DNA of 52,804 nucleotides from Actinomycetes bacterium (GCA_021851165.1 JAJZJN010000001.1:1-52804), one strand, 5' to 3'. Positions 27,717-46,225 are shown, counted from the stretch's first letter. Notes: a model not told the origin generated them from the letters alone. A program made the numbers and translations.

Positions 27717-30209
27717 ATGGATCCAGTTGCCGATGGCGTCTCGGCACCCCTAAGCGACTCTGAAGATACCCGAGCCACCACGATCGAGGGGCTCACTACT
27801 GCCCAGGCGCGCGAGCGCCTCGCACACGACGGGCCCAATTCCATTCCGGAGAAGCACCCGAACCAGATGCTTCTCCTGGCATCGAAGTTCTGGGGTCCCA
27901 TTCCGTGGCTGCTCGAGGCGGCAATCGTGATGGAACTGGTCCTCGGCAACACGGCTGCCGCTGTGGTCATCGCCATACTCGTCATCCTCGATGCCGGCCT
28001 CGCTTTCAACGAGGAGGGCGGCGCCCAGAATGCGCTCGCCCTGCTGCGTCAGCGCCTCACCGTGGAAGCGCGAGTGCTGCGTGACGGCACCTGGTCGGTG
28101 CTCCCGGCAGCCGAACTGGTGAGAGGCGACGTGATACACATGCGCCAGGGCGACTTGATCCCCGCGGACGTGACCCTGGTGGACGGCACCTGTTCGGTCG
28201 ACCAATCGGCGCTCACCGGTGAGTCGGCCGCTATCAAGCTTGCCCCCGGTAGCCAGGGATATTCGGGATCGATAGTCGTGCGTGGCGAAGCCAGTGGCAC
28301 GGTCACCGCCACTGGTATCTCGACCTTCTTCGGGCGTACCGCCGAACTCGTCAGCACGGCCCATGCCCCTGGGCACTTGGAGCGCCTCATCTTCGGATTC
28401 GTCCGGGACCTGTTGGTAGTCGATGCAGCCCTAGTGGTCATGGTCCTGGCAGATGGCGCCGCCCGCGGGATGTCGTGGGGATCGTTGTTGCCCTTTGCCG
28501 TGATCCTGGTAGTGGCTGCAGTACCTATAGCCCTTCCCACCACGTTCACCTTGGCAAGCGCCCTGGGTTCCAAGGAACTGGCCCGCCGTGGGGTGCTAGT
28601 GACCCGGCTCGCGGCGATCGAGGAGGCCGCGAGTGTCGAGGTCCTCTGCACGGACAAGACGGGCACCATCACAGAGAACCGCCTTGCCGTATCCGACCTC
28701 CATGCCTACCCCCCCTTCGACGACAGCCAGCTCCTAGCTGTCGCGGCCGCGGCGAGCGACGCCGCTACGCAGGATCCCCTCGACATCGCAGTCATCACGG
28801 CTGCTGGCGCTGGGAGCGACACCACTCTCGGCACCCGGGTGAGCTTCGTGCCGTTCGATCCGGCCACGAAGCGCTGCGAAGCCCGTTTCGACACGCCAGA
28901 AGGCCCCGTGGTCGTGACGAAGGGCGCACCCCAGGTCATCGCCGCTCTTGCCGGCGTGGACCCGGATCGGATTGCCGACGACATCGACACCCTGGCATCC
29001 ACAGGTGCCCGAGTGCTTGGCGTAGCACGTGGAGCCGATCCGTCGTCGCTGACCCTGATGGGGCTCGTCGGCCTCGCTGATCCACCACGCGCCGACTCGG
29101 CAATGCTCATAGCGCACCTCAAGTCTCTGGGCGTCCGGGTGGCGATGGTAACCGGCGACAGTCTCGCTACTGCCAAGGCCATAGCCGCCAAGGTCGGCCT
29201 GGGCGACCGCGCCTGCAAGTCCGATGTCCTGCGCGCCGCCACAGGCGATCCCACCCCGGATGCGGCTACCTCGGAAGCTGCTGCAGACGCCCCGGGCCGC
29301 AACCCGGATCTACCCGGCGACCAGCCACCGCATAGAGACGCCGGCGGATCTACAGGGATGGAGGGCCTGCTATGCGACGTCTACGCAGAGGTCCTCCCCG
29401 AGGACAAGCTGAGGCTGGTCGAGAAGCTGCAGAACAGCGGCATAGCGGTGGCGATGACCGGGGATGGCGTGAACGATGCCCCTGCCCTGCGCAAGGCGGA
29501 GGTAGGAGTAGCCGTTGCCAGCGCGACAGACGTGGCCAAGGCAGCGGCAAGCATGGTGCTCACCGACCCTGGCCTGGACAATCTCGTAGCCGGCATCGAG
29601 GTGAGCCGCCGCATCCACGAGCGCCTGCTCACCTACACCCTGAACAAGATCGTGAAGACACTTCAGGTCTCGCTCTTCCTGAGCATCGGGCTGCTCGTCA
29701 CGGGGAAGTTCGTCACCACTCCGGTGCTCGTGGTGCTGCTGCTGCTAGCCAACAACTTCGCCACGATGTCTCTGGCCACCGATCGCGTCTCAACGCCCCC
29801 GCGCCCCGAACGCTGGTCGGTAAGGGCACTCATGATCGCATCTCTGGGGCTCTCGATACCCCTGGTACTTTTCTCGTTCGGGATCTGGTATGCAGGGTCG
29901 CTCGGTCTCGGACTTGGCACCGGTGCTCTGCAGACACTCACTTTCGTGTGGCTGGTCACCTCTGCGCAGGCAACCATCTACTCAGTACGCGAGCGCCGCC
30001 ACTTCTGGAGCTCCAGGCCGAGCGGGTGGCTGGCTGCAAGCTCGGCGCTCGACATACTCGTCGTCGCGATCCTCGCGTGGAGAGGCTGGCTCATGGTTGC
30101 CATCGGCCCGCTGGCGCTGGGAATCGGGATAGGGAGCGCGGTCGCCTTCCTCCTGGTAGCCGATGCGCTCAAGACGTTCCTGTTCAGGATTGCCCAGCTG
30201 CAGAGCTGA
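27717..30209 (+). CDS. P3A-type (plasma-membrane H+-ATPase-like) P-type ATPase
   Basis: N-terminus GLTTAQARERLAHDGPNSIPEKHPNQMLLLASKFWGPIPWLLEAAIVM and DQSALTGES...GISTFFGRTAELV closely mirror plant/fungal H+-ATPases. CTDKTGTITEN, MVTGD and MTGDGVNDAPALRKAEVGVAV are present. A ~50-aa Pro/Ala-rich insertion precedes the hinge. Confidence 0.9.
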   Translation: MDPVADGVSAPLSDSEDTRATTIEGLTTAQARERLAHDGPNSIPEKHPNQMLLLASKFWGPIPWLLEAAIVMELVLGNTAAAVVIAILVILDAGLAFNEEGGAQNALALLRQRLTVEARVLRDGTWSVLPAAELVRGDVIHMRQGDLIPADVTLVDGTCSVDQSALTGESAAIKLAPGSQGYSGSIVVRGEASGTVTATGISTFFGRTAELVSTAHAPGHLERLIFGFVRDLLVVDAALVVMVLADGAARGMSWGSLLPFAVILVVAAVPIALPTTFTLASALGSKELARRGVLVTRLAAIEEAASVEVLCTDKTGTITENRLAVSDLHAYPPFDDSQLLAVAAAASDAATQDPLDIAVITAAGAGSDTTLGTRVSFVPFDPATKRCEARFDTPEGPVVVTKGAPQVIAALAGVDPDRIADDIDTLASTGARVLGVARGADPSSLTLMGLVGLADPPRADSAMLIAHLKSLGVRVAMVTGDSLATAKAIAAKVGLGDRACKSDVLRAATGDPTPDAATSEAAADAPGRNPDLPGDQPPHRDAGGSTGMEGLLCDVYAEVLPEDKLRLVEKLQNSGIAVAMTGDGVNDAPALRKAEVGVAVASATDVAKAAASMVLTDPGLDNLVAGIEVSRRIHERLLTYTLNKIVKTLQVSLFLSIGLLVTGKFVTTPVLVVLLLLANNFATMSLATDRVSTPPRPERWSVRALMIASLGLSIPLVLFSFGIWYAGSLGLGLGTGALQTLTFVWLVTSAQATIYSVRERRHFWSSRPSGWLAASSALDILVVAILAWRGWLMVAIGPLALGIGIGSAVAFLLVADALKTFLFRIAQLQS

Positions 30210-30807: not shown

Positions 30808-33800
30808 CTACAGGCCAGGCGCACGCTCGCGCTCTACCAGCTCGCTCGGGGACAGGCGCTCTATGACATAGGCCCCGATGCGCGGCAGTGCGACTGTAGC
30901 CACAGTCGCAGCTGCCGACGCTCCACCGGCCATGGCCCATCCAACGGGCCCAAGGGGGGTGCAGCCAAAGAACTGGCTCACGATCGGGGTCTGAACCACC
31001 CCTACGAGGACGAGACCCGACGCGACGGTCGAGCCGAGCACCAAGGGGCTGCGGTACCCCACGACTGCCGTCTGGCCCAGTTGAGTTCCCACCAGGGCAG
31101 CCAGTGCGACAGTGCTGGCCCGGCGCTGCCTGCCGGTCAGCCTCGCCATCAACCACGCACTGGTGGCTCCTCCGGCCGTGGCCACTGCCCGAAGGGCCAC
31201 CTGACGCCCGAGGGCAGTCCCGAGCGATGCGTCGGGACCTTCGTGAATGAGCGACTCTGCGTCGCGTCCCGCGGGGGGCTGGAGCGCGATCGTGATGGCA
31301 GGAAGCATGTCGGTCAGCAGGTTCACGAGGAGGAACTGCCGGGGGCCGAGGGCAGCGGTGCCCGATATCACCGCTGTGGCCACACTGAAGCCGACCTCGC
31401 CGAGATTGCCACCGACGAGGATCGCGAGTGCGTCGCGCACCGAAGCCCACATGGCTCTGCCTTCTACTATGGCATCGACGATCGTCTCTATGCGATCGTC
31501 AGTCACCACGAGGTCCGCTGCCTCCCTAGCCGCAGGGGAGCCCCTACCGCCAAGGGCGATTCCGGCGTTTGCCAGCCTGATTGCCGCTGCGTCGTTGGCG
31601 CCGTCCCCCGTCATGGCAACGACCCTCCCTGCGCTCTGCAGGGATGCGACGATCCGAACCTTGTGAGCGGGGGTGACCCTCGCGAACACCGAGACACCGT
31701 GGATCGCCTCGTCGAGCTCCTCGGCGCTCATCGCATCGAGCTCCAGGCCGGTCAAGATCCGCCTGGAACCGAAGATCCCGAGCTCGCTTGCCACCGCCGC
31801 CGCTGTGCTCGGATGATCTCCGGTTATCATGACCACATCGACGCCGGCCCGACGGATCTCCGCCACCGCAGCGGCCGCCGTCGGCCGAACGTGGTCCGCC
31901 ATTCCGAGGAAGCCGAGCAGCTCAAGATCGGACACCCTCTGCTCGCCGAGCTCGCCGCCCCCGGAGGCGCCTCTCTGGGCCACCGCGAGCACGCGCAGGC
32001 CCCTGCTGGCCATCCGCTCGACCTCGGCGTCCAATCTCCTCCGAACCCTCGCTGTGATAGGCACGGTTCCGTCGGGCGACGCCCATGTGGCGCAGCGCGG
32101 CAAGATAACTTCGGGTGCCCCCTTCGCTGCTATGACCGTGCGGGCCCCGGCCCTTCCCACCACTGCATGAAATCCTCTGCTCGGCTCGAAGGCCAGCTCG
32201 TCGATGAGCTCCCAGCTCTCCTCATCCAGGCCAGCCCCGATACCAGCCTGGATCGCTCCTTGCACTACAGCCCTGTCGGTGGCGTGCGGCAGGATCTCCT
32301 CGCCATCAGCCACCGGGCTTGCCCGCAGAGCTGCAGCGAGCACCTGCCGTCCCGCAGGGGCGGGTGCCTCGATCGGGTAATCCGTTGAGCCGTCGGAAAC
32401 TCGTATCAACGCGATCTCACCGGCTGTGAGAGTGCCGGTCTTGTCGAAGCACAGAACGTCGACACGACCCAGAGCCTCGATCGTATGGGGGTTCCTCACC
32501 AACGCTCCGCGCTCGGACAACCGGCGTGCCGCAGCAAGCTGCGCAGCACTGGCAAGCAGCGGAAGCCCTTCTGGAACCGCCGCCACCATCAGGCTCACGC
32601 CCGAGCCGACCGCACGACGAAGAGGAACACCGCGCAACAGGCCAAGTCCGGTGACTACGGCGCCACTGGCCACCGTCGCCGGCACCGTGAGGGTGCTCAA
32701 ACGGGCGAGGCGTGCTTCGACGCCGCTGCGAGGTGCCTCGGGCGCCTCGGCCAGCCCGCGCCTGGACTCCGTGGCGTCCCCGGTAGCAACAACCACGCCA
32801 AGAGCGCTCCCGGCAACCACGGTCGTCCCCTCGTAGAGCATGCACGACCGATCGGCCACGGCCATGCCCGGAGTGGCCATCGCGTGCTTGAGCACCGGCA
32901 GTGACTCGCCAGTGAGCGCCGACTCGTCGACCTCGCACGAGGATGCCTCGAGGATACGGCAGTCAGCGGGAACCTGATCCCCACTACCCAACTCAACCAC
33001 GTCCCCACGCACCAGCCCATCGTGGCCGATCTCTACGGTCTTACCAGAACGGAGAACTCCCACAGATCCTGCGCTTGCCGTCGCCAGCCGAGCTATCGAC
33101 ACCTCGGCACGCATACGCTGAACCGCGCCTATCGCAGCGTTCGCCCCCGCGACACCGGCCACCAGCACCGCATCCGTCACCGAGCCCACGGCAGCCGAGA
33201 GGCCGGCGCCGACCCCGAGCAGTGGGGTGAGAGGATTCGACAGCTCTTCGACCAGGGCCCTCGCTGCCTTCGCTGCCAGGGGCCGCGGAGGCAACCGGGG
33301 CGTCTCGCGGCGGCGAGCCTCGGCAGTGTCGAGGCCGTCCCGGGAGCTCCTGAGGGCCGCGATGACCGCCTCTGGGCTCATGGCGTGCCAAGGCGGTGGA
33401 GTATCCGGTATCGGCACCCGCCGCCGCGCCACGATGGAAGCCGAGTAAACCGAGCTCGCCTGAGCAGCCAATGCGGCAACGTTGACCGGCAGAGCAGCCC
33501 GCCTTCCTGCTGTGCTCGGAAGCCCAACCAGGGCCCATACCCCGCCGATACCCGATCCTGCCAGGGACAGCATCGCCGCTCGGCGACTGACTTGACGGGC
33601 GGCCCTGGCCGCCTCTACGACGAGGAAGGCGGGCTCCAGGTCCTTCCCGGCAAGCAGATGCGCGCCCCAGGGGGGATCGTGGGCAAGGCCGGTGAGGCCG
33701 AAGCCGCAGTCTGCCGCTCGCAGTGCCCCCCGTGCCTCGCCGCCGGAAACGAGCAGAACCACATGCCCGGCAGATTGCAGCGATCGCACCGACTGCCTCA

Positions 33801-35364
33801 GGCGCCTGCCCGCCGCCACCACTCCCTTCGCCCCCAACTGCTCCCCGACCGCTCCGCGGGTACCGGCAACGAGCAGATCGAACCCGGCGCGCCTGATGCT
33901 GTCCCCCAGTGCCGTCGCAAGGGGCACCAGCTCGGCCTCCAGAGCAGCCAAGCCGACAAGGCGCTTGGAGGTCGCCAAGCCAAGCACGCCCGAGCCCCGG
34001 CGTGCCAGCGTCCGAACCCTCCCAAGGGTGCCACGCGGCATCTCGATGCCCATGGCCTCCAGATCTCCCAGGGGAGCCAGCATCCATCTTCCGCTGCGAA
34101 CCTTGCCCATGGGCTTGTCCGCATCGAACATCGAGTCGAGGCGGCTGGCCACCTCCAGTGGATCCCCACCCCCGATGGCCTCGAAGTGCCCTAGCCGTCT
34201 CCGCCCCGTCGTCAGCACCGCTGCGTCGAGCACGACGGTGTCGACCCTGTCGAGCCTGAGCAGCGCAGTGCGATCCATCACAAGCACGCCACGCCCCGAC
34301 AACGCTCTACCCAGTTCGGCTGAAAAGGCTTCCCTCCCGAGACGCGCTGCCTTGGGCACGCCGGCCACGAATGCGTTACCCGCCTTGCGCGGGCTGCGGG
34401 TCGCGGCAAGCGCCACGCCGAAGGCACCGAAGGTCGCCAATGACGCCCTGTCGGTGTAGCGCTCCACAGGGCCTGGCGGCAAGCTCGCCGGGCGGGGCTC
34501 CCGGCTGATCGGATCAATCGATCCGGTGTGACGCCCGCACAGCTCGGGCTCACGCTTGGACCAGAGGACCTGGTACGACCGTAGCTCGCCTATCCGGTTG
34601 GCTCTATGGGCCATGTCGACTGCCAGGCCCAGAGGTCCCTGTGAAAGGGCCTGTGTCAACGCGTTTGCAAGACCAAGGCCCAGATCGGTCGCGGCATGGC
34701 CGATGTGGGCATCGAGCAACCGCCGTACCCTTGGTTCGCTCTCAGCCAACGCCACCAGGGACGCTATCTCGCTCGGGAGCGGTGTCGCCCCAAGGATCTG
34801 ACCGAACACGCTCACACCGAGACCGGCTACGTCTGCCCCCAACGCGATCGCATTGCGCCGCAACGGCTCGATGTCCCCCGGGTGCTCCGGCCGGTCGTGG
34901 GAGAAACGCTCCTGATGAAGCCCATGGGCCTCCTCGACGCCCTCGACGACCTCCACCAGGTCATCGAGATCCGCGCTACCTGGATCAAAGGCGACCACCA
35001 CCCGGCCTGTGACCGCGTTCACCTCCGCCCACTGAACGCCTTCGACTCTCGACAGGGCGCCTTCAACATGCCTCGTGAACGCGTCAAGCCCCTGCCTGCG
35101 CGCTGCGCGCACCTCTATATGGGCACGGCCATTGCCAACCCATGACCGGCGGTGCCGCCGGCCACTGAAGATCCCGTCGAGCAACCTGGCGAGCTCCGTG
35201 TATCCCGGAATACCGGTCACCATGAACTGCTGGGGGCGCAACCAGCTGCCAGCGGGATCACCCTCCGGCAGTTTGCCCGCTCGCCGCCTTGGCGTCACGA
35301 CGGCCTGTCCGATGACGGGCGACCACCACACCGGCACCGATGAGGGCAGCTGCAGGAAGCTCAA
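30808..35364 (-). CDS. Giant (1518 aa) cation P-type ATPase, CtpH/CtpI-like: degenerate P1B-like N-terminal module plus an intact P2-like pump
   Basis: The C-terminal ~860 aa carry TGES (ALTGESLPV), CFDKTGTLTAGE, AKGAPE, MITGD and MTGDGANDAAAIRLANAGIALG. The N-terminal ~650 aa carry an HMA-like fold without CxxC and mutated copies of the P-domain motifs (see findings). Third-position G/C is high right up to the TTG at 35364. Confidence 0.9.
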   Translation of the reverse strand: MSFLQLPSSVPVWWSPVIGQAVVTPRRRAGKLPEGDPAGSWLRPQQFMVTGIPGYTELARLLDGIFSGRRHRRSWVGNGRAHIEVRAARRQGLDAFTRHVEGALSRVEGVQWAEVNAVTGRVVVAFDPGSADLDDLVEVVEGVEEAHGLHQERFSHDRPEHPGDIEPLRRNAIALGADVAGLGVSVFGQILGATPLPSEIASLVALAESEPRVRRLLDAHIGHAATDLGLGLANALTQALSQGPLGLAVDMAHRANRIGELRSYQVLWSKREPELCGRHTGSIDPISREPRPASLPPGPVERYTDRASLATFGAFGVALAATRSPRKAGNAFVAGVPKAARLGREAFSAELGRALSGRGVLVMDRTALLRLDRVDTVVLDAAVLTTGRRRLGHFEAIGGGDPLEVASRLDSMFDADKPMGKVRSGRWMLAPLGDLEAMGIEMPRGTLGRVRTLARRGSGVLGLATSKRLVGLAALEAELVPLATALGDSIRRAGFDLLVAGTRGAVGEQLGAKGVVAAGRRLRQSVRSLQSAGHVVLLVSGGEARGALRAADCGFGLTGLAHDPPWGAHLLAGKDLEPAFLVVEAARAARQVSRRAAMLSLAGSGIGGVWALVGLPSTAGRRAALPVNVAALAAQASSVYSASIVARRRVPIPDTPPPWHAMSPEAVIAALRSSRDGLDTAEARRRETPRLPPRPLAAKAARALVEELSNPLTPLLGVGAGLSAAVGSVTDAVLVAGVAGANAAIGAVQRMRAEVSIARLATASAGSVGVLRSGKTVEIGHDGLVRGDVVELGSGDQVPADCRILEASSCEVDESALTGESLPVLKHAMATPGMAVADRSCMLYEGTTVVAGSALGVVVATGDATESRRGLAEAPEAPRSGVEARLARLSTLTVPATVASGAVVTGLGLLRGVPLRRAVGSGVSLMVAAVPEGLPLLASAAQLAAARRLSERGALVRNPHTIEALGRVDVLCFDKTGTLTAGEIALIRVSDGSTDYPIEAPAPAGRQVLAAALRASPVADGEEILPHATDRAVVQGAIQAGIGAGLDEESWELIDELAFEPSRGFHAVVGRAGARTVIAAKGAPEVILPRCATWASPDGTVPITARVRRRLDAEVERMASRGLRVLAVAQRGASGGGELGEQRVSDLELLGFLGMADHVRPTAAAAVAEIRRAGVDVVMITGDHPSTAAAVASELGIFGSRRILTGLELDAMSAEELDEAIHGVSVFARVTPAHKVRIVASLQSAGRVVAMTGDGANDAAAIRLANAGIALGGRGSPAAREAADLVVTDDRIETIVDAIVEGRAMWASVRDALAILVGGNLGEVGFSVATAVISGTAALGPRQFLLVNLLTDMLPAITIALQPPAGRDAESLIHEGPDASLGTALGRQVALRAVATAGGATSAWLMARLTGRQRRASTVALAALVGTQLGQTAVVGYRSPLVLGSTVASGLVLVGVVQTPIVSQFFGCTPLGPVGWAMAGGASAAATVATVALPRIGAYVIERLSPSELVERERAPGL

Positions 35365-35650
35365 CAGCGCCTGCGATCACAGTGGCCGCCAGCGCCCCCA
35401 CAAAGGCCAGACCGACAACCGGCTCGGGCACACGCGCATGGACAAGCGGCAGCACATAGCCAGAGCACTGTGATGCTGCACCGCCGCCAGGAGTTTCACC
35501 ATCACCCTTCACTGTCCTGTTAGCCACCATCTATTACGGATGCCTCCGATCATGAAGTCAGCACCCGAAGGGACTCCGCGCGCCGCATTCACACATGCTA
35601 ATGGCACGCGGCCTAGCCTGCTGCTCATGGAACCTGCACGTTCGGGGTCA

Positions 35651-35722
35651 GGGACTGGCCCAGAGCGCGGGACTGGCCCAGAGCCCGGGACTGGCCCAGA
35701 GCCCGGGACTGGCCCAGAGCCC
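35651..35722. repeat. 18-bp tandem repeat GGGACTGGCCCAGAGC(G/C)C x4
   Basis: Units at 35651, 35669, 35687 and 35705. Each contains the palindrome CTGG-C-CCAG. They are probably intergenic (see chrA start) but would read (GTGPEP)n in the long ORF. Confidence 0.9.
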
Positions 35723-36961
35723 GTGGCTCTGTCGACAATCGCTCTCGCGTTCGGTCAGATAGGGCTCACGGCGTACGGGATGGCCGTAATGGCCAAGCTC
35801 AAGTCGACCGTGCTCGGACGGCGCTGGCTGACAGCCGAGCAGATGAACGAGGGACTGGCCTTGGTCCAGATCTACCCGGGACCGATCATGATCGATTTCA
35901 CCGCGTACGTCGGCTACCGCCTGCGAGGCGTCCGCGGAGCTATAGCCGCCACCCTGGGCTTTGTCACTCCGTCCTTCATCCTCATGGTGGCGCTGAGCGC
36001 CCTGTACTTTGCCGGGGCGAGCCTCGGGTGGGTGCGCGAGATGGTTCTGGGCCTCGACGCAATCGTGGTCGGCGTGGTCATGCACGTCACGCTGGACTTC
36101 GCGAAGCAGTACCTTGCGAGCACGTCGGCGGCAGCAGTGGCGATCCTGGCGTTCACTGCTGACATCTACGGTGTGAGCCCCGTGCTTGTCATCGTCGGCG
36201 CGCTCATGGCCGGGGCATTGTGGATGGCCCCGCGGGCACCAGCCGTCGATCCCACCCGCTCTCCGAGCCGTTCCGATCCCACCCGCTCTCCGAGCCGTTC
36301 CGATCCCACCGGCTCCCCGAGCCGAGCGCCAGGGCAGGCAGGGCAGGCACGACGGTGGCTCGCCATAGGCGCCCTCACCTCAGTGGTGATAGCCACAGCC
36401 ATCGTGTTGGTCCTCGCCGAGCCGCGGCGGTTGGCAACGATGGGGACCGGTCTTCTCGAGATCGGCGCTGTCGCATTCGGCAACGGGCTTACCATACTGC
36501 CACTCATAACGAACCTGGCCGTCGTCTCCCATCACTGGCTCACCCCAGGCGAGCTGAGCGCGGGGATCGCATTCGGCCAGGTGACACCAGGTCCCTTCCT
36601 CATAACGGCAGCCTTCATCGGCTACAAGCTCGCTGGCATTCCCGGAGCCGCTCTGGCCACCTTTGCGATCTTCTCGCCCTCGTTCGCCATGACGCTCGGC
36701 TTTACGGAGGTATCCGGTCCCCTCCAGAGATGGCGGCCCGTGCGCGGGGCGCTCGCCGGTGTGATGGCCGCGTTCGTCGGGCTCCTCAGCGCGATCATTC
36801 TCCAGCTCGGGCATCCCGTCATAGCCAGCCGTGCATCGACGGCTCTAGCAGGTGCAGCCCTGGTAGCAGCCCGAGCCTTCAAGCTCGACATGATCTGGGT
36901 GTTCGCGGGAGGTCTGGCCATCTGGGCTGCCGCATGGCAGCTGGGACTTCTCGGCCATTAG
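35723..36961 (+). CDS. chrA: Chromate ion transporter (two CHR domains)
   Basis: The two CHR halves are FGQIGLTAYGMAVMAKL...WLTAEQMNEGLALVQIYPGPIM and EIGAVAFGNGLTILPLI...WLTPGELSAGIAFGQVTPGPFL. The GTG at 35723 is preferred because third-position G/C between 35540 and 35650 is only about half, versus strongly G/C after 35723. The ORF-track start at 35540 is an alternative. Confidence 0.85.
   Translation: MALSTIALAFGQIGLTAYGMAVMAKLKSTVLGRRWLTAEQMNEGLALVQIYPGPIMIDFTAYVGYRLRGVRGAIAATLGFVTPSFILMVALSALYFAGASLGWVREMVLGLDAIVVGVVMHVTLDFAKQYLASTSAAAVAILAFTADIYGVSPVLVIVGALMAGALWMAPRAPAVDPTRSPSRSDPTRSPSRSDPTGSPSRAPGQAGQARRWLAIGALTSVVIATAIVLVLAEPRRLATMGTGLLEIGAVAFGNGLTILPLITNLAVVSHHWLTPGELSAGIAFGQVTPGPFLITAAFIGYKLAGIPGAALATFAIFSPSFAMTLGFTEVSGPLQRWRPVRGALAGVMAAFVGLLSAIILQLGHPVIASRASTALAGAALVAARAFKLDMIWVFAGGLAIWAAAWQLGLLGH
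36248..36324. repeat. 27-bp tandem repeat x2.9 in the chrA inter-domain linker
   Basis: gatcccacccgctctccgagccgttcc at 36248-36274 and 36275-36301, with a diverged third copy to 36324. It encodes DPTRSPSRS x3. Confidence 0.9.
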
Positions 36962-37007
36962 CCGGATCCAACATCCATCGACCTCACGCGCGTGCGATGC
37001 TTGGCCC

Positions 37008-37469
37008 ATGTGGCTGGACCATGCCGGATCGGAGATCCTCGAACGTCCCGAGTGCCTGCGCCTACTGGCCCTCGGCGCCAAACACCAGTTGGTGGGCCGG
37101 GTAGGTTTCGTCGTGCCCCATCCCGACGGATCCACCCACGCTCCGATCATCCTGCCGGTCAACTTCGCCCAGGTCGAGGGAGAGCTCGTGGTGCGCTCGG
37201 GTGAAGGCCTGAAGAGCAGCGCCACGGACGGTGCCCTGGTGGCATTCGAGGTCGACAGCGCGGATCACGTCGAGCAGGTTGCATGGAGCGTCCTGGTCCG
37301 CGGGCTCGGGACAGTGTGGCATCCGGACCGGATGGCTCCCGAGGACCTCGGACGCCTGCCTCATCCACTCGTCCCTAGAGCAGGTGACCGCCTACTTCAC
37401 ATCCGCGCCGACCTCGTGACCGGCCGCCGCTTCGCGCTCCATGGCGCGGCAACGGAGCCAGAGCACTAG
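37008..37469 (+). CDS. Pyridoxamine 5'-phosphate oxidase-family (Pyridox_ox_2 type) flavin/deazaflavin-binding protein
   Basis: ECLRLLALGAKHQLVGRVGFV...PIILPVNFAQVEGELVVRSGEGLK...VAFEVD...WSVLVRG follows the family pattern. It is a paralogue of 43203-43670. Confidence 0.8.
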   Translation: MWLDHAGSEILERPECLRLLALGAKHQLVGRVGFVVPHPDGSTHAPIILPVNFAQVEGELVVRSGEGLKSSATDGALVAFEVDSADHVEQVAWSVLVRGLGTVWHPDRMAPEDLGRLPHPLVPRAGDRLLHIRADLVTGRRFALHGAATEPEH

Positions 37470-37470
37470 G

Positions 37471-39597
37471 GTGGGCGAACCGACTGACGCCGGCTCGATG
37501 CCCGATTCCACCGCTGCTACGACGCGCGCGGACGGGTCGTCGTCACCATGGGTAATCGTGGTATCAGACGGGCCGCGATCAAGACGCAGGGTCGAGGAGA
37601 GTTGGCTATGCCTTGCGGACGGCCACTTCGGCACGCGCGGCAGCCTTGAGGAGGACGGCCCCGATGCTGCTCCTGCCGTCGTGGCCGCATCGGTCTACGA
37701 GCGCCATGCCGACGGGACGATATCTCTTCTCCAAGGGCCGGGGTGGACAACGCTACCCTTACCAGCCGGATCACCCAGCGGCAGCCGGGAGCTCGACATG
37801 AGCACCGGTATCCTCTCCAGAACGCTCCCGTACGGTAGCGCGGGCTGGCTGAGAACGATCCGTCTCTCAAGCCTCGCGCGCCCTGGCACGATGATCCTGT
37901 TGGCAGACCTGCCCCCAGGCTATGAGCCCACCGGCGAGGTCGAAGTGCATGCCTGCGCCTCGACCCTCGGCGGAGGGATAGCCCTCGCGATCTCCGACTA
38001 TGTCGAGGCGCTACCACCAGGGCTGCTGCCACCCATGCCAGGCGCCCCTGCGTCTTCCCAGCAGTGCTCCCGCCAGTCCGTCGTGCGCATCGCGTGCTAC
38101 GACGCTGCCTCATCACGCAGGCCCTCTGTCACTCGGGCCCGTCGCCGCCTTGCGGCCGCACGGGCGCTCGGCCCGTATGCCCTCGTGGCGGAGCATACGA
38201 CAGCCTGGGCGTCGCGTTGGGAGGACGCGAACGTCGAGATAACCGGAGACGAAGAGCTCTCGCGAGCTGTTCGGTTCTCCCTGTTCCACCTCATGGCATC
38301 TGTCGCCAGCCGGGGCGAGGCACCAGTCGGTGCCCGCGGCCTGAGTGGGCTCGCCTATGCAGGCCATGTGTTTTGGGATGCCGACGTGTTCGTGCTGCCG
38401 TTCCTCGCTGCCACGCATCCGCCCTCTGCACGCGCGATGCTCGAGTACCGCATCAGGCGCCTACCTCAGGCGCGGGATGCCGCCATCGGCAGTGGCCGTC
38501 GAGGGGCACGCTTCCCATGGGAGTCCGCGCACGACGGGACGGACGTGACGCCGCGGTCGGGAATCGACGAGCACGGGACGGTAGTTCCGATATTGACCGG
38601 GGATCTCGAGGAGCACATCGTCGCCGACGTCGCATGGGCAGCCTGGCAGCTTGCATCATGGTCGGGATCCTGGCGGTTCCTCGACGGTCCGGGCGGCCCT
38701 CTCGTGGTCGACACGGCGCGCTACTGGGCAAGCAGGGCTCGCCTCGATGCCGACGGCCGTGCCCACATAGACCATGTGATCGGGCCCGACGAGTACCACG
38801 AGGGTGTGGATGACGATGCCTTTACCAATCTGATGGCGGCATGGAATCTCCGCCGAGGAGCCGAGCTGCTGGAGCGCACCGGGGGCTCAGCCGAGCATGC
38901 CGAGGCTGCCCGCTTCAAAGAGCTCGCCGGGGCGATGGTGGACGGCTACAGTCAGGACAGCGGGATCTACGAGCAGTTCACCGGCTACGCCAAGCTCGAG
39001 GCCATCATGGCCACCGACCTGGGGACGCCACCTGTAGCTGCCGACTTGGTCCTCGGACGCGAGCGGCTGGAGCAATCCCAGATCATCAAGCAGGCCGACG
39101 TGCTCATGGCGCACCACATGATCCCTGCAAGCATGAGAGCTGGCTCGCTCGCGGCCAACCTCGATTACTACCTTCCTCGCACTGCGCATGGCAGCTCGCT
39201 GTCGCCATCGGTTCATTCGAGCCTCCTGGCCAGATGCGGGCGCCTTGACGAAGCCGTCTCGCTGCTGCAGCTCGCGTGCGACATCGACCTCACAGACCTG
39301 ACAGGCAGTACCGCCGGTGGCCTCCACATGGCCAACATGGGCGGGATATGGCAGGCATTGGTCATCGGCTTCGCCGGTATCCAGCCCGAGCGACCCGACG
39401 AGAACACACTTCGGATCGATCCTCACATCCCGGAGCAGTGGGGGGAGCTCAGGATGCGCATTCGCTGGCACAACCGCCGGCTGTCGCTGCGGTGCTCCGC
39501 GGATTCCCTATACGTCGGATGCGACCGGGCAGTACCGGTCCAAGTGGCCGGTCGCCATCGTATTGTCGTCCAGCCTCCAGGAAGGTGGTTCAGATGA
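37471..39597 (+). CDS. Glycoside hydrolase family 65 protein (maltose/trehalose/kojibiose phosphorylase-like)
   Basis: VRFSLFHLMAS...GLSGLAYAGHVFWDADVFVLPFL...MLEYRIRRLPQARDAA...GARFPWES and HIVADVAWA...IGPDEYHEGVDDDAFTN are GH65 catalytic-domain signatures. The start is uncertain: GTG at 37471 just after the upstream TAG, or 37441 / 37498. Confidence 0.85.
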   Translation: MGEPTDAGSMPDSTAATTRADGSSSPWVIVVSDGPRSRRRVEESWLCLADGHFGTRGSLEEDGPDAAPAVVAASVYERHADGTISLLQGPGWTTLPLPAGSPSGSRELDMSTGILSRTLPYGSAGWLRTIRLSSLARPGTMILLADLPPGYEPTGEVEVHACASTLGGGIALAISDYVEALPPGLLPPMPGAPASSQQCSRQSVVRIACYDAASSRRPSVTRARRRLAAARALGPYALVAEHTTAWASRWEDANVEITGDEELSRAVRFSLFHLMASVASRGEAPVGARGLSGLAYAGHVFWDADVFVLPFLAATHPPSARAMLEYRIRRLPQARDAAIGSGRRGARFPWESAHDGTDVTPRSGIDEHGTVVPILTGDLEEHIVADVAWAAWQLASWSGSWRFLDGPGGPLVVDTARYWASRARLDADGRAHIDHVIGPDEYHEGVDDDAFTNLMAAWNLRRGAELLERTGGSAEHAEAARFKELAGAMVDGYSQDSGIYEQFTGYAKLEAIMATDLGTPPVAADLVLGRERLEQSQIIKQADVLMAHHMIPASMRAGSLAANLDYYLPRTAHGSSLSPSVHSSLLARCGRLDEAVSLLQLACDIDLTDLTGSTAGGLHMANMGGIWQALVIGFAGIQPERPDENTLRIDPHIPEQWGELRMRIRWHNRRLSLRCSADSLYVGCDRAVPVQVAGRHRIVVQPPGRWFR

Positions 39598-40355
39598 GTG
39601 ATGCCCCCGCCGACCGGGATCGGAACGGACCGGACGATCACACAACCCCCGAGAGCGAGAACAGCGCTCAGCTACCGGCAGGTGACCTGACAGTTGCCTC
39701 GTGGGGCAACGCCAGCCTGACCCGGTGGCAACCGGCCATCGATGCCGTCGCACAGATGCTGGGCTTGAACCCCGTTACCGGTCCATGCTTCGACGCACCA
39801 ACGGGGTCCAGGAACGGCGAGGGTGACACCATGCTAGGCCTTGCCGCGTCGCTTCCAGGCCCGGTGCTCGTTCTTCCCCCCCGGGGAGCGGGCAACGCTA
39901 GCGCGGTCCAGGGATCTACACAGGCCACGCCCGGCAGCACGCTATCCCGGGTGCTCGTGCCCGTCGACGGCACAGAGCCGGTCATAGAACGCGTCCGGCA
40001 TTTCCTAGGTCACCTGGGCAAGTCCCTTGAGGGAGTCGTGCTCCTGCACGTCTTGTCGGAGTCCACCCGGCCACGGTTGTGGGAGGGGGCCGGGTACAAC
40101 GCCGAGGCATGGCTGGAAGAGCTGAGCCGCCGGCATGGCGTGGGAGTCGGATCCATAGAGGTGCGCACCGGGGAACCTGCTGACGTCATCGAGGAGCGGT
40201 CACATGATGCCGACCTCATTGCCTTGGCATGGCAGGGCGACATCACCTCAGGCAAAGCAGCCTTGGCAAGGGCCCTGATCGAGCGGGTCGACGTGCCGGT
40301 CCTGCTCCTGCCCTTCGCCCCTATCGGCGAGTCCGGCACGCTGCCTGGCAGCTGA
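39594..40355 (+). CDS. Hypothetical protein with a degenerate C-terminal USP-like domain
   Basis: ATGA overlap with the GH65 stop (39594-39597). The C-terminal RVLVPVDGTEP...VVLLHV...DLIALAWQGDITSGKAALARALIERVDVPVLLLP has the USP topology but lacks the Gly-rich ATP motif. The N-terminal ~120 aa are unassigned. Confidence 0.6.
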   Translation: MSDAPADRDRNGPDDHTTPESENSAQLPAGDLTVASWGNASLTRWQPAIDAVAQMLGLNPVTGPCFDAPTGSRNGEGDTMLGLAASLPGPVLVLPPRGAGNASAVQGSTQATPGSTLSRVLVPVDGTEPVIERVRHFLGHLGKSLEGVVLLHVLSESTRPRLWEGAGYNAEAWLEELSRRHGVGVGSIEVRTGEPADVIEERSHDADLIALAWQGDITSGKAALARALIERVDVPVLLLPFAPIGESGTLPGS

Positions 40356-40371
40356 GCCGGCTCAGGCCCGC

Positions 40372-40896
40372 TCAATCCTCCTCGCCGTGGACCACCACTA
40401 CCGGGCAGTGCGCGTGGTGGACGCACTGAGAGCTCACCGAACCGAGCAGAAGACCGACGAACCCGCCCCTGCCGCGGCTTCCGACCACGAGCATCTCGGC
40501 ACCCTTGGAACGCTCGATAAGCACTGGCGCCGCCGGCCCTTCGACCACCGTCTCGGTAATGGTGAGGCCTGAGCCTTCCACCTCCGACAGAGCATCGGCG
40601 AGCTCGGCCTTCACGTCTGTCTCCATCTGGACTGCCGCGTCGCCTATTCCTTCCCCGGCTGGAAGCATCGCGAAGTCGACAGGAACCTGCCAGGCAGCCA
40701 CCGCATCCAACGACGCGTGCCGGTAGCCCGCCTCCTCCACTGCCCAGGCGAGCGCCTGCCTCGATGTAGGCGAGCCATCGACGCCGACCACGATCCTTCC
40801 ACCTCCGCGGAGCGCCGCGCCTGGCTCCTCGCTCCGCCCGCCTGCTGGCTCAGGGGCCGCTGAACCTGCCTCGTTGCCATAGCTGCCATCCACCAT
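40372..40896 (-). CDS. Universal stress protein (UspA family)
   Basis: IVVGVDGSPTSRQALAWA and MLVVGSRGRGGFVGLLLGSVSSQCVHHAHCPVVVV. It is a paralogue of 30184-30690. GAGGGAG lies 8 nt upstream of the ATG at 40894-40896. Confidence 0.9.
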   Translation of the reverse strand: MVDGSYGNEAGSAAPEPAGGRSEEPGAALRGGGRIVVGVDGSPTSRQALAWAVEEAGYRHASLDAVAAWQVPVDFAMLPAGEGIGDAAVQMETDVKAELADALSEVEGSGLTITETVVEGPAAPVLIERSKGAEMLVVGSRGRGGFVGLLLGSVSSQCVHHAHCPVVVVHGEED

Positions 40897-41132
40897 GAAC
40901 GCATCTCCCTCGGTCGCCAATGAATACAGGATGCCAGGTTCGCGCGGAAGCTGTTGGCCGTGCCGGTTGTCGAAAATGGAGCGGTGGCACCACGGGCTTC
41001 TTGCACACGCCGGCCCGGCGGGCTACTAGCGTGGGTAGGTATGGATAACTGCGACACGCCGGCAGCCAGCTGGGCGACCAGGAGCCCGGTGCGCGTCGCT
41101 CGCGGCGTTGATCATCCGGCGGTGGCTCCTCG

Positions 41133-43193
41133 GTGACCAGGCAGGCCCTTCCGCCTCCCGATGGAGCCAAGCCACAGGGCACTGCGCCGCCACCCCCGCC
41201 CGGGTGGCGCCATTGGCTACTCCCGATCGCCTTCGGTATCACCCTCCTGTTATGGATAGTGCTGCCGACATTGCACACCACCCCGCCGGTCAACCTCACC
41301 TATTCGCAGTTCCTCCACGATGTCTCCGCGCACGAGGTGCGCAGCGTCACCATCGCGTCAAACGGCACCGCTACGGGCAAGCTCGCCAAGGGGCGCTCCT
41401 ACACCACCGTCATCCCAGTCGAGTTGGCCAGATCCTCCCTCCTCACGGAGCTCCAGGCGGCGAAGGTGTCAATAGACGCCAGCGTGGCAGGGCCGTCGTT
41501 CGGTTCCGAGGTGATCACCTGGCTGATCCTTCTGGGTCCGTTCGTGATAATCATCTGGTTCTGGGTCCGCCTGTCCCGACAAGGGGGCGGCGGCGCTCTC
41601 GGCGGGGCTCTGAGCGTCGGGCGATCGAAGGCCAAGGTGTTCGATGCCGAGAGGCCCTCCACGACCTTCGCAGACGTGGCTGGATACGAGGGAGCAAAGG
41701 CAGAGATAGCCGAGGTGGTCGACTTCCTTCGCAACCCGGAGCGCTACAGGCGCGCCGGGGCAGTGGCGCCGCGCGGAGTGCTGATGGTCGGACCCCCCGG
41801 CACCGGCAAGACCCTGCTGGCCCGCGCAGTGGCAGGCGAGGCGGCGGTGCCGTTCTTCTCGGTTGCGGGATCCAGCTTCGTCGAGATGTACGTCGGCGTG
41901 GGAGCAGCGCGCGTCCGCGATCTGTTCACCGAAGCGGCAAAGCGGGCTCCGGCCATAGTGTTCGTCGACGAGGTCGATGCCATAGGTCAGCGGCGCTCGG
42001 GCCAAGGGGCCATGGTATCCAACGACGAGCGCGAGCAGACGCTGAACCAGCTGCTATCGGAGATGGACGGGTTCGACCCAGCCGAGGGCATCGTCGTCCT
42101 GGCAGCTACGAACCGCCCGGAGATCCTCGACCCCGCCCTGCTGCGCCCCGGTCGCTTCGATCGCCAGGTGATCATCCCACTGCCCACGCTAGGTGAGCGC
42201 CGAGCCATACTGGCAGTTCATTGCAAGGGAAAGACTCTTGGCCCCGACGTGGACCTGGACGTGGTCGCACGGGGAACCCCGGGCTTCTCAGGGGCAGATC
42301 TGGCCAACCTCGCCAACGAGGCAGCGATAGTCGCCGTTCGAAACAACAGGCATATCCTCGCCGCATCCGACTTCGACCAGGCACGCGACCGCATCCTCCT
42401 CGGCAGGCGCGAGGGCTCGAACGTGCTGCTTCCCGAGGAGAAGCACGCTGTCGCCATACACGAGTCAGGACACGCCATCGTGGCTGCATTGTGCCCTAAC
42501 GCAGATCCTGTGGCGAAGGTCACGATCCTGCCTGCCGGCCAGGCGCTCGGCGTGACCGAGCAGCTCCCGCTGGTCGAGCGGCACTTGTACTCCGAGGACT
42601 ACCTGAACGACTCGCTTGCGGTACGACTCGGCGGGCGCGCCGCGGAGCTAGTAGAGCTTGGCCAGGGTTCTACCGGCGCGGCAAACGATCTTGCCCAGGC
42701 GACCGACCTGGCCACGAAGATGGTACGAGAGTTCGGTCTATCCAAGGCGCTAGGTCCCGTCGGCTACCCGAGCGGCGGGTCGGTTTTCCTGGGGGGCGGT
42801 GGGTCCGAGTTCTCGAGTCGGCCTTTTGCGGAAACCACCCAGGCAACCATCGACGCCGAAGTGTCCCGGCTGGTCAAGGATGCCGAGGACCGTGCGGTCA
42901 GCCTGCTGAAAGCCCATAGGAGCGCGCTTGGCAAGCTGGTCAAGCTCCTCCTCGAGCAGGAGACCGTGGATGGCTCTGCCGTCTATCATCTGGTCGGCAC
43001 GAAGCCGTCCGGCTCCCCCCAGCCACCTCGCACCGTGGCGCCGGGATCGTCCCGCGTGCCGGCAAACACCCACGCCGCCAGCGCCAGCCGTGCCTCGAGC
43101 ACTTCCAACCAAGAACCGAGCGCCCAATCGGCACCCCATGCACCCCATGCACCCCATGCACCCCATGTGGAAGACTCCCAAGTTACAGACTGA
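41133..43193 (+). CDS. ftsH: ATP-dependent zinc metalloprotease FtsH
   Basis: Two N-terminal TM helices, AAA+ Walker [19 protein letters not shown], Walker [10 protein letters not shown], an SRH region, and the HEXXH motif HESGHAIVA. The C-terminal tail contains (HAP)4. Confidence 0.95.
43131..43166. repeat. 9-bp tandem repeat gcaccccat x4 (FtsH C-terminal tail)
   Basis: Units at 43131, 43140, 43149 and 43158. It encodes [12 protein letters not shown]. Confidence 0.9.
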
Positions 43194-43202
43194 GGTCCGC
43201 TC

Positions 43203-43670
43203 ATGAGCTTCGCCCACTTAGCCACAATCGAGGAGATGTCCGAGGAGGACTGCCGTTCCCACCTCGCCGCCGGCAGGCTCGGCCGTCTGGCCGTCCAGGC
43301 GGGCGACCATCCCGAGATATTCCCCGTGTCATACGTCTTCGACGGGACGAGCATCATATTCCGCACCGAGCCCGGCACCAAGCTCTCGGCTGCTTCTATG
43401 GCGAAGGTGGCCTTCGAGATAGACGAGGTCGACAGGACGGCCGGCACGGGTTGGAGCGTCATGGCCAAGGGAACGGCCTTCGACGTGACGGACTCCATCG
43501 ACCCGGCATCGCAGGCCGCGAGGACTACCCCGATCGACTCCCCTGTCGCAGCCGACGACGCTCATTGGGTGAGGATTTCTCGCCTCGTTCTGTCGGGTCG
43601 TCACCTGGAACTGCTTACCCCAGCAGGAAGCGAGTCCCCCTCCGAGCCTGGCTCGACTCCTGCTGGCTGA
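43203..43670 (+). CDS. Pyridoxamine 5'-phosphate oxidase-family protein (paralogue of 37008-37469)
   Basis: EDCRSHLAAGRLGRLAV...PEIFPVSYVFDGTSIIFRTEPGTKL...VAFEIDEVD...GWSVMAKG follows the same family pattern. It starts 9 nt after the ftsH stop. Confidence 0.8.
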   Translation: MSFAHLATIEEMSEEDCRSHLAAGRLGRLAVQAGDHPEIFPVSYVFDGTSIIFRTEPGTKLSAASMAKVAFEIDEVDRTAGTGWSVMAKGTAFDVTDSIDPASQAARTTPIDSPVAADDAHWVRISRLVLSGRHLELLTPAGSESPSEPGSTPAG

Positions 43671-43740
43671 CCACAGACCGGCCGATCGACGACCTAGGGT
43701 TACCAATGACTCGAGTCGCCTGCCGGTAATTGCGTCTCAT

Positions 43741-43786
43741 CCACTACGTTCGAGTGGGCCAGTTCGAGTGGGCCACTACGTTCGAG
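43741..43786. promoter_or_regulatory. Nested direct repeats upstream of xfp: CCACTACGTTCGAG (x2, 32 bp apart) flanking tandem GTTCGAGTGGGCCA (x2)
   Basis: CCACTACGTTCGAG at 43741-43754 and 43773-43786. GTTCGAGTGGGCCA at 43748-43761 and 43762-43775. The element lies 52-97 nt upstream of the xfp ATG. Confidence 0.4.
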
Positions 43787-43837
43787 ACGGTAGCTGGCTT
43801 GTAGCAGGCCAGTGCGTTGGAACCGAGAGGAGCTGCC

Positions 43838-46225
43838 ATGACATCAGCCACCGATCCGCCGAGCTCGTCGGGGAACGGCCCCTTGGATGCAGAGGAGCTG
43901 GCGTCTCTCGATCTGTGGTGGCGAGCCGCCAACTACCTCTCCGCCGGGCAGATCTTCCTGGTTGACAATGCGCTTCTCACAGAGAAGCTCCTACCCGACC
44001 ACATCAAGCCCAGGCTGCTTGGCCACTGGGGCACCACTCCTGGGCTGAACCTCCTTTACGCGCATGCCAGCCGTCTCGTCGCCAAGCGCGACCTCGACGC
44101 GATGTTCGTCACGGGACCCGGGCACGGGGGCCCGGCTCTGGTGGCAAGCACCTACATCGAGGGCAGCTATACCGAGCGCTATCCGAGCATTGGCGTCGAC
44201 GCCGACGGCCTTCACAGGCTGTTCCGCCAGTTCTCGTTCCCCGGTGGGATCCCGAGCCACGTCGCGCCGGAGACCCCAGGCTCGATCAACGAAGGGGGCG
44301 AGCTCGGCTATTCCCTGCTGCACGCCTATGGTGCCGCATTCGATAATCCCGATCTGGTCGTCTTCTGCGTAGTCGGCGACGGCGAGGCCGAGACCGGTCC
44401 CCTCGCCACCAGCTGGCAGTCGAACAAGGTCCTAGACCCTGCCCGTGACGGGGCCGTTCTCCCGATCTTGCACCTTAACGGCTACAAGATCGCAGCACCC
44501 ACCCTCCTTGCACGCATCCCCCCCGGCGAGCTGGATGAATTCTTGCGCGGGTGCGGCTACGACCCCCTGGTAGTGGAGGGCAACGAGCCGGAGCCGGTCC
44601 ACCAGCAGCTGGCTGCCGCCCTCGAATCCGCCCTCGACCGGATCTTCCAGATCCAGCACAACGCCCGCACGCGCGGTGTCGGCTCACGTCCTGCATGGCC
44701 GATGGTCGTCTTGCGCACACCCAAGGGGTGGACCGGTCCGAAGGTGGTCGATGGTGAGCCGGTGGAGGGAACCTTCCGGGCCCACCAGGTTCCGCTGCCC
44801 CTGGCGCGAACCGACCCCGTCCAGCTCGGCCAGCTCGAAGACTGGATGCGAAGCTACAAGCCCGAAGAGCTCTTCGACGCGCGAGGCGCTCTGCGGCCCG
44901 AAGCTCGTGCCCTGGCTCCGAAGGGAGACCGGCGGATGGGGGCCAACCCCCATACCAACGGCGGCAAGCTCCTTCGCGAGCTGACACTCCCCGATCTGGA
45001 TGCCTACGGCGTGCAAGTCGACTCCGCGGGAAAGCCCGAGGTGGAACCAACGCGGATCCTGGGCACCTGGCTTCGTGACGTGATGTCGGCCAACCCCGAC
45101 AACTTCCGGGTGTTCGGGCCCGACGAGACCGCCTCGAACAGGCTGACAGCCCTGTTCGAGGTGACCGACCGCACCTGGATGGCCGAGCGGGTCGCAGCCG
45201 ACGACCATCTCGCCCCCGACGGGCGCGTCATGGAGGTTCTCTCCGAGCACTGCTGCGAAGGCTGGCTCGAGGGCTACCTGCTGAGTGGTCGCCACGGTCT
45301 GTTCAACTGCTACGAGGCCTTCATCCACATCGTGGACTCGATGTTCAACCAGCATGCCAAGTGGCTGAAGGTCTGCCACGAGATCCCCTGGCGGGAGCCC
45401 ATAGCTTCACTCAACTACCTCCTCAGCTCCCACGTCTGGCGTCAGGACCACAACGGCTTCTCCCATCAGGATCCGGGATTCATAGACCATGTCGTCAACA
45501 AGAAGGCCTCAGTCGTGCGCGTCTACCTACCGCCAGACGCGAACTGCCTCCTCGCCGTAGGCCGGCACTGCCTCGCAAGCCGCAACCGGGTGAACGTGAT
45601 AGTGGCAGGCAAGCAGCCGAACCCGACCTGGCTTACGCTCGACGAGGCCATTGCACACTGCGAGCGTGGCGCCGGCATCTGGGAGTTCGCGAGCACGGAC
45701 AACGGTGGAGATCCCGACGTCGTACTCGCGTGCGCCGGTGACGTCCCCACGCTCGAGACGTTGGCCGCTGCCGAGATACTGCGCAACAGCCTTCCCGAGC
45801 TTCGCGTGAGAGTCGTGAACGTCGTCGACCTGATGCGCCTGGAGCCTCCGACTGAGCATCCACACGGCCTGCCGGACCCCGCGTTCGACGACCTGTTCAC
45901 CACCGACAAGCCTGTCCTGTTCGCCTACCATGGCTACCCCTGGCTCATTCACCGGCTCACCTACCGCCGCACGAATCACGACAACATCCATGTGCGCGGG
46001 TACAAGGAGGAGGGCACGACCACCACGCCGTTCGACATGGTCATGCTGAACGACCTCGACCGGTTTCACCTCGTGATGGACGTGATCGATCGAGTCCCAG
46101 GCCTTGGCCAACGTGCTGCCGCACTCCGCCAGGAGGTCACAGACCTGCGGACGGAAGCCCGTGCCTACACCCGCGAGTTCGGTGACGACATTCCCGCGGT
46201 GAGGGACTGGACATGGACGGGATAG
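43838..46225 (+). CDS. xfp: Xylulose-5-phosphate/fructose-6-phosphate phosphoketolase
   Basis: [18 protein letters not shown]...L....[16 protein letters not shown] and the EGGELGYSL signature. GAGAGGAG lies 5-6 nt upstream of the ATG at 43838. Confidence 0.95.

Follow-up and report, generated by a model that had tools for sequence, protein, structure and literature searches.

We analyzed a giant P-type ATPase gene in a 52,804-nucleotide (nt) window of an Actinomycetes bacterium genome (GCA_021851165.1, JAJZJN010000001.1:1-52804; "the window" denotes this whole stretch). The encoded protein very probably combines a complete type-I ATPase gene, of the P1B, copper-pump-like kind, with a P2A-like pump of the Ca2+ type, in front of which the former was fused. 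The captured N-terminal module has lost its actuator domain, phosphorylation motif, Mg/phosphate motifs and CPC metal site, as well as all cysteines in its heavy-metal-associated (HMA) domain, and purifying selection on it is as strong as on the live pump. The chances appear about even that this dead module serves as a pseudoenzyme partner that stabilizes or allosterically gates the Ca2+-type pump; the fusion architecture and the partner role, taken together, form the explanation that we favor, with moderate confidence.

The architecture itself is that of the FUPA24 (TCDB 3.A.3.24) or CtpH-CtpI family, of which the window protein is a further member, and it has already been published, contrary to the suggestion in the original prediction, an earlier sequence-based note on this DNA, that it had not been described. 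Chan et al. 2010 reportedly describe FUPA24, in their abstract, as a fusion of a type I ATPase gene (N-terminal) and a type II gene, of which only the type II part is still functional. Matched by description, the Mycobacterium tuberculosis proteins CtpH (Rv0425c) and CtpI (Rv0107c) share with the window protein the double length, the restriction of functional motifs to the C-terminal half (C-half) and a degenerate N-terminal half (N-half), and relatives of the window protein are named "cation-transporting ATPase I" (that is, ctpI) in their sources; whereas CtpH and CtpI are mycobacterial, the source of the window protein is an uncultured actinobacterium, of the order Acidimicrobiales. A passage of PMC3573892, citing Chan et al. 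2010, describes FUPA24 proteins as twofold longer with functional motifs in the C-terminal region only, and according to a 2026 review (PMC13460109), the N-terminal region of CtpH/CtpI is seen in AlphaFold models to be a degenerate P-type ATPase. A 2023 review by Palmgren lists CtpH/CtpI as uncharacterized and among the open enigmas of the superfamily, and the live half of the family forms an isolated branch in published trees (PMC10654040). Of all P-type ATPases of M. tuberculosis, CtpH and CtpI are understood least, and the present analysis provides a testable hypothesis for the extra half of such pumps. PMC5615198 and bioRxiv 716472 held no further prior art on the architecture. In the literature searched, we did not find stated the excision of the actuator domain, the retained proline of helix M4, the equal ratio of nonsynonymous to synonymous substitution (dN/dS) in the two halves, how large and widely distributed the family is, or the orphan dead modules.

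The maximal open reading frame (ORF) opens with TTG, and the real start is probably the ATG of M48, giving a protein of 1471 amino acids (aa) (Table 1). The exact 1471-aa product is recorded in GCA_027414555.1 and in the European Nucleotide Archive, the closest relative uses the equivalent ATG as its start, and gene callers also choose M48; an exact look-up of the TTG-start protein returned no record. Residue numbers throughout refer to the 1518-aa ORF and are offset by +47 relative to the M48 start. A 99%-identical relative carries the label "MAG: Acidimicrobiales bacterium" (MAG, metagenome-assembled genome), and a tblastn search against plasmids gave no match.

The N-half is a P-type ATPase homolog of the type-I/P1B kind. 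Single-sequence scans see little of it, just the Pfam HMA domain (26.4 bits, cutoff 24.8) and a faint P-type match (E 0.14), and family profiles were therefore needed. A profile built from an alignment of the window protein with 21 N-half-only homologs matched, among PDB entries, ATP7B (6e-15), HMA4 (7e-13), the phosphorylation (P) and nucleotide-binding (N) domains of Archaeoglobus fulgidus CopA (1e-8) and KdpB (2e-7), with SPCA1 as the best P2 pump (E 0.045). The stretch aligned to the second part of the pseudo-P-domain was ATP7B 1158-1340, and the HMA domains of Bacillus subtilis CopA (1p6t) were matched at 2e-11. An AlphaFold2 model of aa 1-655 (predicted local distance difference test, pLDDT, 83.8; predicted template modeling score, pTM, 0.83) was searched with Foldseek and retrieved ATP7B (1.9e-15), CopA (~1e-13), KdpB (2e-11) and ZntA (4e-11); the top matches were all P1B or P1A, and P2 pumps first appeared at ~1e-8. 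Individual N-half sequences (n = 22) matched P1B models in NCBIfam (TIGR01525 in 8 of the 22) and no P2 model. Because the profile match in PDB reached 6e-15 and the Foldseek match 1.9e-15, chance similarity is excluded. The P-type fold is thus present in aa 1-655, and profile, structure, NCBIfam and like-for-like scoring (below) agree with the original prediction on the P1B nature of the dead half, as do the Pfam and 1p6t matches on an HMA-like fold without CxxC near its N-terminus.

Like the P1B pumps CopA, ATP7B and ZntA, the N-half displays an HMA fold, eight helix positions (MA, MB, M1-M6), the M4 proline, a P-domain with a Rossmann fold and a small N-domain; it differs from them in having no actuator (A) domain or TGE, no DKTGT, GDGxND, CPC, CxxC or HP/GxG, and less hydrophobic M1, M2 and M4. 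In the model, beta-alpha-beta-beta-alpha elements occupy aa 80-146 of the HMA-like domain, which contains no Cys of any kind. Family-averaged hydropathy indicates clear membrane helices at 168-193, ~190-207, 304-323, 595-616 and 623-645 (5-6 in all), the first two being the only clearly hydrophobic stretches within aa 166-275, where P211, G222, D250, E260, W268 and E272 are conserved. The A-domain of a P-type ATPase usually comprises ~120 aa; in the N-half it is gone as a whole, and a loop (aa 276-298) lies between two helices in its place, partly covering the conserved motif RP.PLP.GP.E.YA.R (aa ~291-305). Of the CPx/xPC metal motif in M4, only the proline is kept. The CPC position had been read as ATRSP, which was the wrong register: ATRSP (aa 321-325) is the M3-M4 turn. 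The equivalent is V336-P337-K338, because P337 precedes D380 by 43 residues, exactly as P931 of PEGL precedes D974 in the C-half, and because P337 itself is conserved (63/67 sequences). K/R338 (61/67), G343 (64/67) and R344 (58/67) are likewise conserved, and the proline is followed by a charged stretch (K338, R341, R344 and E345). The module ends after the M6-like helix, as P1B pumps do, and the Cation_ATPase_N region of the live pump starts directly after aa 646.

Judged from its motifs, the N-half is catalytically dead, such that neither ATP hydrolysis nor metal pumping should be possible. The alignment bears out the original prediction that D380-AAVL occurs where DKTGT would be expected, and S540-GGEAR where GDGxND would be, and a motif scan likewise found no TGES in this half. 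Position 380 is D in 43, E in 10, Q in 4, H in 3, T in 2 and P in 2 of 67 sequences, with variable equivalents of KTGT, and the GDGxND-equivalent columns are unconstrained across the 67. Neither the GDGxND nor the TGD Mg/phosphate-binding motif is found in the N-half, and the HP/GxG nucleotide-binding motifs are absent from it. This death is universal across the relatives examined: each of the 66 full-length representatives carries exactly one DKTGT and one GDGxND, both in the C-half, TGES where present is confined to the C-half, and no CxxC occurs within the first 250 residues of any of the 66 or of the window protein. The universal loss of motifs in orthologs excludes two live pumps in tandem, an alternative that would have DKTGT outside the C-half as well.

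The C-half, by its motifs, is an intact pump, as had been predicted, and is P2A-like. Pfam recognizes E1-E2_ATPase, Hydrolase, Cation_ATPase and Cation_ATPase_C in aa 659-1489, and TGES (818), PEGL (931), DKTGT (974; nt 32431-32445) and GDGAND (1253) are all in place. The Ca2+-site ligands are near-invariant in the family (E of PEGL, GGNxGE in M5 and NLLTD in M6), and Foldseek with a two-module model retrieved LMCA1 of Listeria (4.7e-44, 31% identity) and also SPCA1. The C-half resembles the P2A Ca2+-ATPases (LMCA1, SPCA1/PMR1, SERCA) in its motifs and in N/E of M5 and N/T/D of M6, but differs from them in its isolated branch, in being nearly always preceded by a dead module and in falling below all NCBIfam equivalog cutoffs, PMR1-type and SERCA-type models included (best, PMR1-type, 392 bits vs 798.3; another, 348 vs 703.4). 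The live half is predicted most likely to export Ca2+, and CtpH has been tied to Ca2+ pumping and Ca2+-stress induction (PMC9180918).

A profile search covering 1.84 billion representatives (cutoff E<=1e-30) yielded at least 617 representative clusters at 50% identity. The family is spread over Acidimicrobiia, Streptomyces, Actinomadura, Amycolatopsis, Egicoccus, one Dormibacteria MAG and Polyangiaceae MAGs. The best 120 relatives of the live half are nearly all 1350-1510 aa long, that is, fused; they are MAG or environmental relatives, and named mycobacterial CtpH/CtpI are not among these 120. Standalone dead modules also occur: a 717-aa ORF in Streptomyces sp. TP-A0356 (L010, 5422-7575), followed by an opposite-strand lytic polysaccharide monooxygenase gene; P0056, with the same boundaries on three contigs (L012-L014); and P0053. 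These three lineages share 81% and ~45% identity with one another, comprise ~520-620 conserved residues without an adjacent pump half, all lack the pseudo-N-domain and keep 23 of 24 signature residues. We also considered an arrangement in which the dead and live halves are separate adjacent genes, and rejected it, the apparent splits being artefacts or lesions: a gene broken up by frameshifts in a long-read assembly (L016, 6001-10471), an in-frame TAG within the first transmembrane helix of the pump half (L019, 4968-4973, with an Nramp gene upstream), and truncation right after the module junction (P0024; L015 606-2573 in Planosporangium thailandense).

Although the module had been described as decayed, its conservation is not that of a decaying sequence. 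In the one pair of close relatives compared by the Nei-Gojobori method (L001/L002, with unsaturated dS of 0.14-0.19), dN/dS is 0.137 in the N-half, 0.149 in the C-half and 0.09 in the HMA-like domain. Occupancy of the N-half is ~100% across relatives, and none of the 66 full-length representatives has it truncated; mean identity at long range is 36.5% in the N-half and 51.9% in the C-half. Near-invariant residues comprise P211, G222, D250, E260, W268, E272, R291, P296, G298, P299 and E301, and further P337, K/R338, G343, R344, E345, L371-D372-R373, Q530, G533, D552 and W566. The family signature accordingly includes QPRxRR, D250, E260, W..RE, RP.PLP.GP.E.YA.R, PKAARLGRE, LRRLDRVD, LQ..G and AAD.G.G. 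The pseudo-P-domain is the best conserved part of the N-half (45-46% identity), and the pseudo-N-domain has 25% identity and an occupancy of 0.86. The equivalent of aa ~385-490 is missing or very divergent in the fused relatives P0035, P0042, P0060, P0067, P0134, P0141, P0156, P0188 and P0202; this sub-domain is thus dispensable even in cis.

An AlphaFold2 model of aa 160-1359 (73 sequences aligned; pLDDT 87.9, pTM 0.80, no segment below 50) suggests that the dead module is packed in a defined way against the live half, because a freely jointed two-body protein would be expected to fall short of this pTM. We picture the dead module as a possible built-in, non-catalytic "second protomer" of the live pump. 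Its retained hydrophobic helices would anchor it in the membrane, where it would pack, with its orientation fixed, against the P2 half and could stabilize the pump or allosterically gate its E1/E2 cycle, with the conserved pseudo-P-domain/M4 junction and the loop replacing the A-domain as putative contact or signaling surfaces. Such a pseudoenzyme partner is suggested by the equal selection on the two halves, the near-universal fusion, the conserved non-catalytic surface and the loss of precisely the parts that serve chemistry and A-domain movement. The large family, the equal selection and the standalone forms likewise point to a partner and not to junk, and P337, R344, L371-D372-R373, D250, E260 and the loop 291-305 are candidate functional residues. 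In pseudoenzyme tandems, the dead paralog acts as a regulator or structural partner. By analogy, the window protein could be likened to the JAK pseudokinase-kinase tandem (JH2-JH1) and to ABC transporters with one degenerate nucleotide-binding site, in which a dead paralog is paired, covalently or obligately, with a live one under selection, but the fold and chemistry are unrelated there, and here the two modules derive from P1B and P2, two different subfamilies, and not from a recent duplication, so that regulation would be supposed by analogy.

More generally, it is possible, if doubtful, that dead P1B modules form a class of their own, "pseudo-pumps", acting as conserved, autonomous, non-catalytic partners of P2-type pumps. 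They would usually work in cis, as parts of CtpH/CtpI-like fusion proteins throughout Actinomycetota, and sometimes, as the orphan ~620-aa proteins of Streptomyces-like lineages, in trans or on their own. In place of the lost catalytic machinery, a family-specific surface made of LDR, PKAARLGRE and RP.PLP.GP.E.YA.R would then mediate interaction or allosteric control. If so, pseudo-pumps would be the first pseudoenzyme regulator described in the P-type ATPase superfamily.

Several points weigh against the partner reading. The standalone modules indicate that fusion is not obligatory and that the function of the module may be independent of the pump. The M1, M2 and M4 positions are poorly hydrophobic, which leaves the membrane topology of the dead module uncertain, and the C-half misses every equivalog cutoff, which makes the Ca2+ assignment a prediction. 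The pTM of the two-module model would be an indirect measure of rigid packing, regulation could run in the direction of activation, inhibition or stabilization, and a role of the N-half in any family member is deduced from sequence comparison.

Among the alternatives, one is that the module is a sensor, whose HMA-like and/or pseudo-P and pseudo-N domains would bind a metabolite, a nucleotide or, by way of non-thiol ligands, a metal, and signal this to the pump. HMA domains act as regulators in real P1B pumps, the HMA-like domain is kept and constrained here, as its low dN/dS shows, and the pseudo-P-domain is the best conserved segment. However, the HMA-like domain is devoid of Cys, the phosphate/Mg ligands vary freely, and the family consensus displays no conserved His/Cys/Met cluster; nucleotide sensing in particular is disfavored by the pseudo-N-domain, the least conserved part, which some fused forms and all standalone ones have lost. 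We consider a sensor improbable.

We assign a similarly small chance to a scaffold or oligomerization device, in which the module would recruit proteins or other pumps, or dimerize, rather than act on its own C-half. In favor of this, standalone modules keep the signature residues without an adjacent pump, one clade encodes a conserved small membrane protein just upstream, and mycobacterial P1B pumps assemble with PacL scaffolds (PMC13460109). The small upstream protein, however, is missing at most loci and is not PacL/DUF1490, and the very high frequency of fusion together with the pTM of 0.80 favors a partner acting in cis.

Two further explanations are disfavored. A functionless relic, that is, a long membrane-anchoring leader left by an old fusion and slowly decaying, would account for the faster divergence of the N-half at long range, the disappearance of all catalytic motifs and the dispensability of one sub-domain, but is very unlikely given a dN/dS equal to that of the live half, the absence of truncations among the 66 full-length representatives, the near-invariant family-specific residues and the persistence of standalone forms down to 45% identity. 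Hardly tenable at all is an origin of the N-half by internal tandem duplication of the P2 half and later degeneration, instead of capture of a P1B pump: the families of the two halves do align in hhalign (probability 95.6%, E 1.3e-8, N-half 353-591 against full-length aa 947-1304), in agreement with the predicted correspondence of aa 357-391 (GRGVLVMDRTALLRLDRVDTVVLDAAVLTTGRRRL) and aa 528-557 (SLQSAGHVVLLVSGGEARGALRAADCGFGL) to the DKTGT and GDGxND regions, but like-for-like scoring rules out such a duplication. Of 67 family C-halves, just 28 give any score with the N-half profile (median 16 bits, max 31), and that of the window protein is not among these 28; the profile reaches 37.6 bits with CopA (P/N domains alone), 33.6 with KdpB and 58 with ATP7B. 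The Foldseek ranking of P1B and P1A above P2, the HMA domain, the end of the module after M6, without M7-M10, and the restriction of NCBIfam matches to P1B models speak against it as well.

Table 1. Features of the giant ATPase gene and its surroundings, in window coordinates
Feature	Position (nt)	Strand	Residues or length	Remarks
Maximal ORF, giant P-type ATPase	30808-35364	-	1518 aa	opens with TTG at 35364
Probable true coding sequence	30808-35223	-	1471 aa from M48	ATG at 35223
N-half, P1B-derived pseudo-pump module, predicted dead	33400-35364	-	aa 1-655
C-half, predicted intact P2A-like pump	30808-33399	-	aa 656-1518
HMA-like ferredoxin-fold domain	34924-35142	-	aa 75-147	Pfam HMA; profile against 1p6t
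Helices at MA/MB/M1/M2 positions	34540-34869	-	aa 166-275	model, hydropathy, consensus
Loop replacing the A-domain	34471-34539	-	aa 276-298 (23 residues)	model secondary structure, consensus, no TGES
M3- and M4-like helices	34294-34470	-	aa 299-357	model, alignment
CPC-equivalent V336-P337-K338	34351-34359	-	aa 336-338	proline spacing, alignment
Pseudo-P-domain, part 1	34177-34293	-	aa 358-396	invariant L371-D372-R373
D380-AAVL in the DKTGT position	34213-34227	-		alignment
Reduced pseudo-N-domain	33925-34176	-	aa 397-480	least conserved, missing from some relatives
Pseudo-P-domain, part 2	33637-33924	-	aa 481-576	Q530, G533, D552 conserved
S540-GGEAR in the GDGxND position	33730-33747	-	aa 540-545	alignment
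M5- and M6-like hydrophobic helices	33427-33636	-	aa 577-646	model, hydropathy
Small hydrophobic protein gene	35258-35530	-	90 aa	35 nt upstream of the ATPase start, same strand
Chromate transporter	35540-36961
PNPOx-like	37008-37469
Glycoside hydrolase family 65 (GH65) phosphorylase	37441-39597
Universal stress protein	39276-40355
FtsH-like protease	41133-43193
XFP phosphoketolase	43817-46225

The small hydrophobic protein encoded upstream of the giant ATPase may be a clade-specific accessory subunit. It is found at this position in L001, L002, L005 and L019, and not at the Amycolatopsis, Streptomyces or other loci examined. It belongs to no Pfam family, and its identity with PacL/DUF1490 was rejected, as three homologs gave no such Pfam match at E<=10. 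A common core, G[YF]V.P..H.R..EP...LP.AALIGA.VVVARH, runs through the homologs. At some Acidimicrobiales loci (L004 5623-5871, L005 5650-5853, L019 2556-2783 and 1766-2065), additional small conserved ORFs are found between the small protein and the ATPase, with ME(I/V)(F/I)(L/V)ERLLLEL...LR(L/I)V.WLR.R as an example motif; L019 also has an ~82-aa ORF, and none of these extra ORFs is present in the window.

Convergent with the giant ATPase, the plus strand encodes another P-type ATPase, 830 aa long (27717-30209). It passes the NCBIfam equivalog for P3A plasma-membrane H+-ATPases (649.7 vs 615.5 bits), a type that is uncommon among bacteria. The neighborhood at 35540-46225 (Table 1) has a stress or dormancy flavor, and the truncated homolog of Planosporangium thailandense (L015) has a GH65 gene and a gene of the PNPOx family at its flanks as well.

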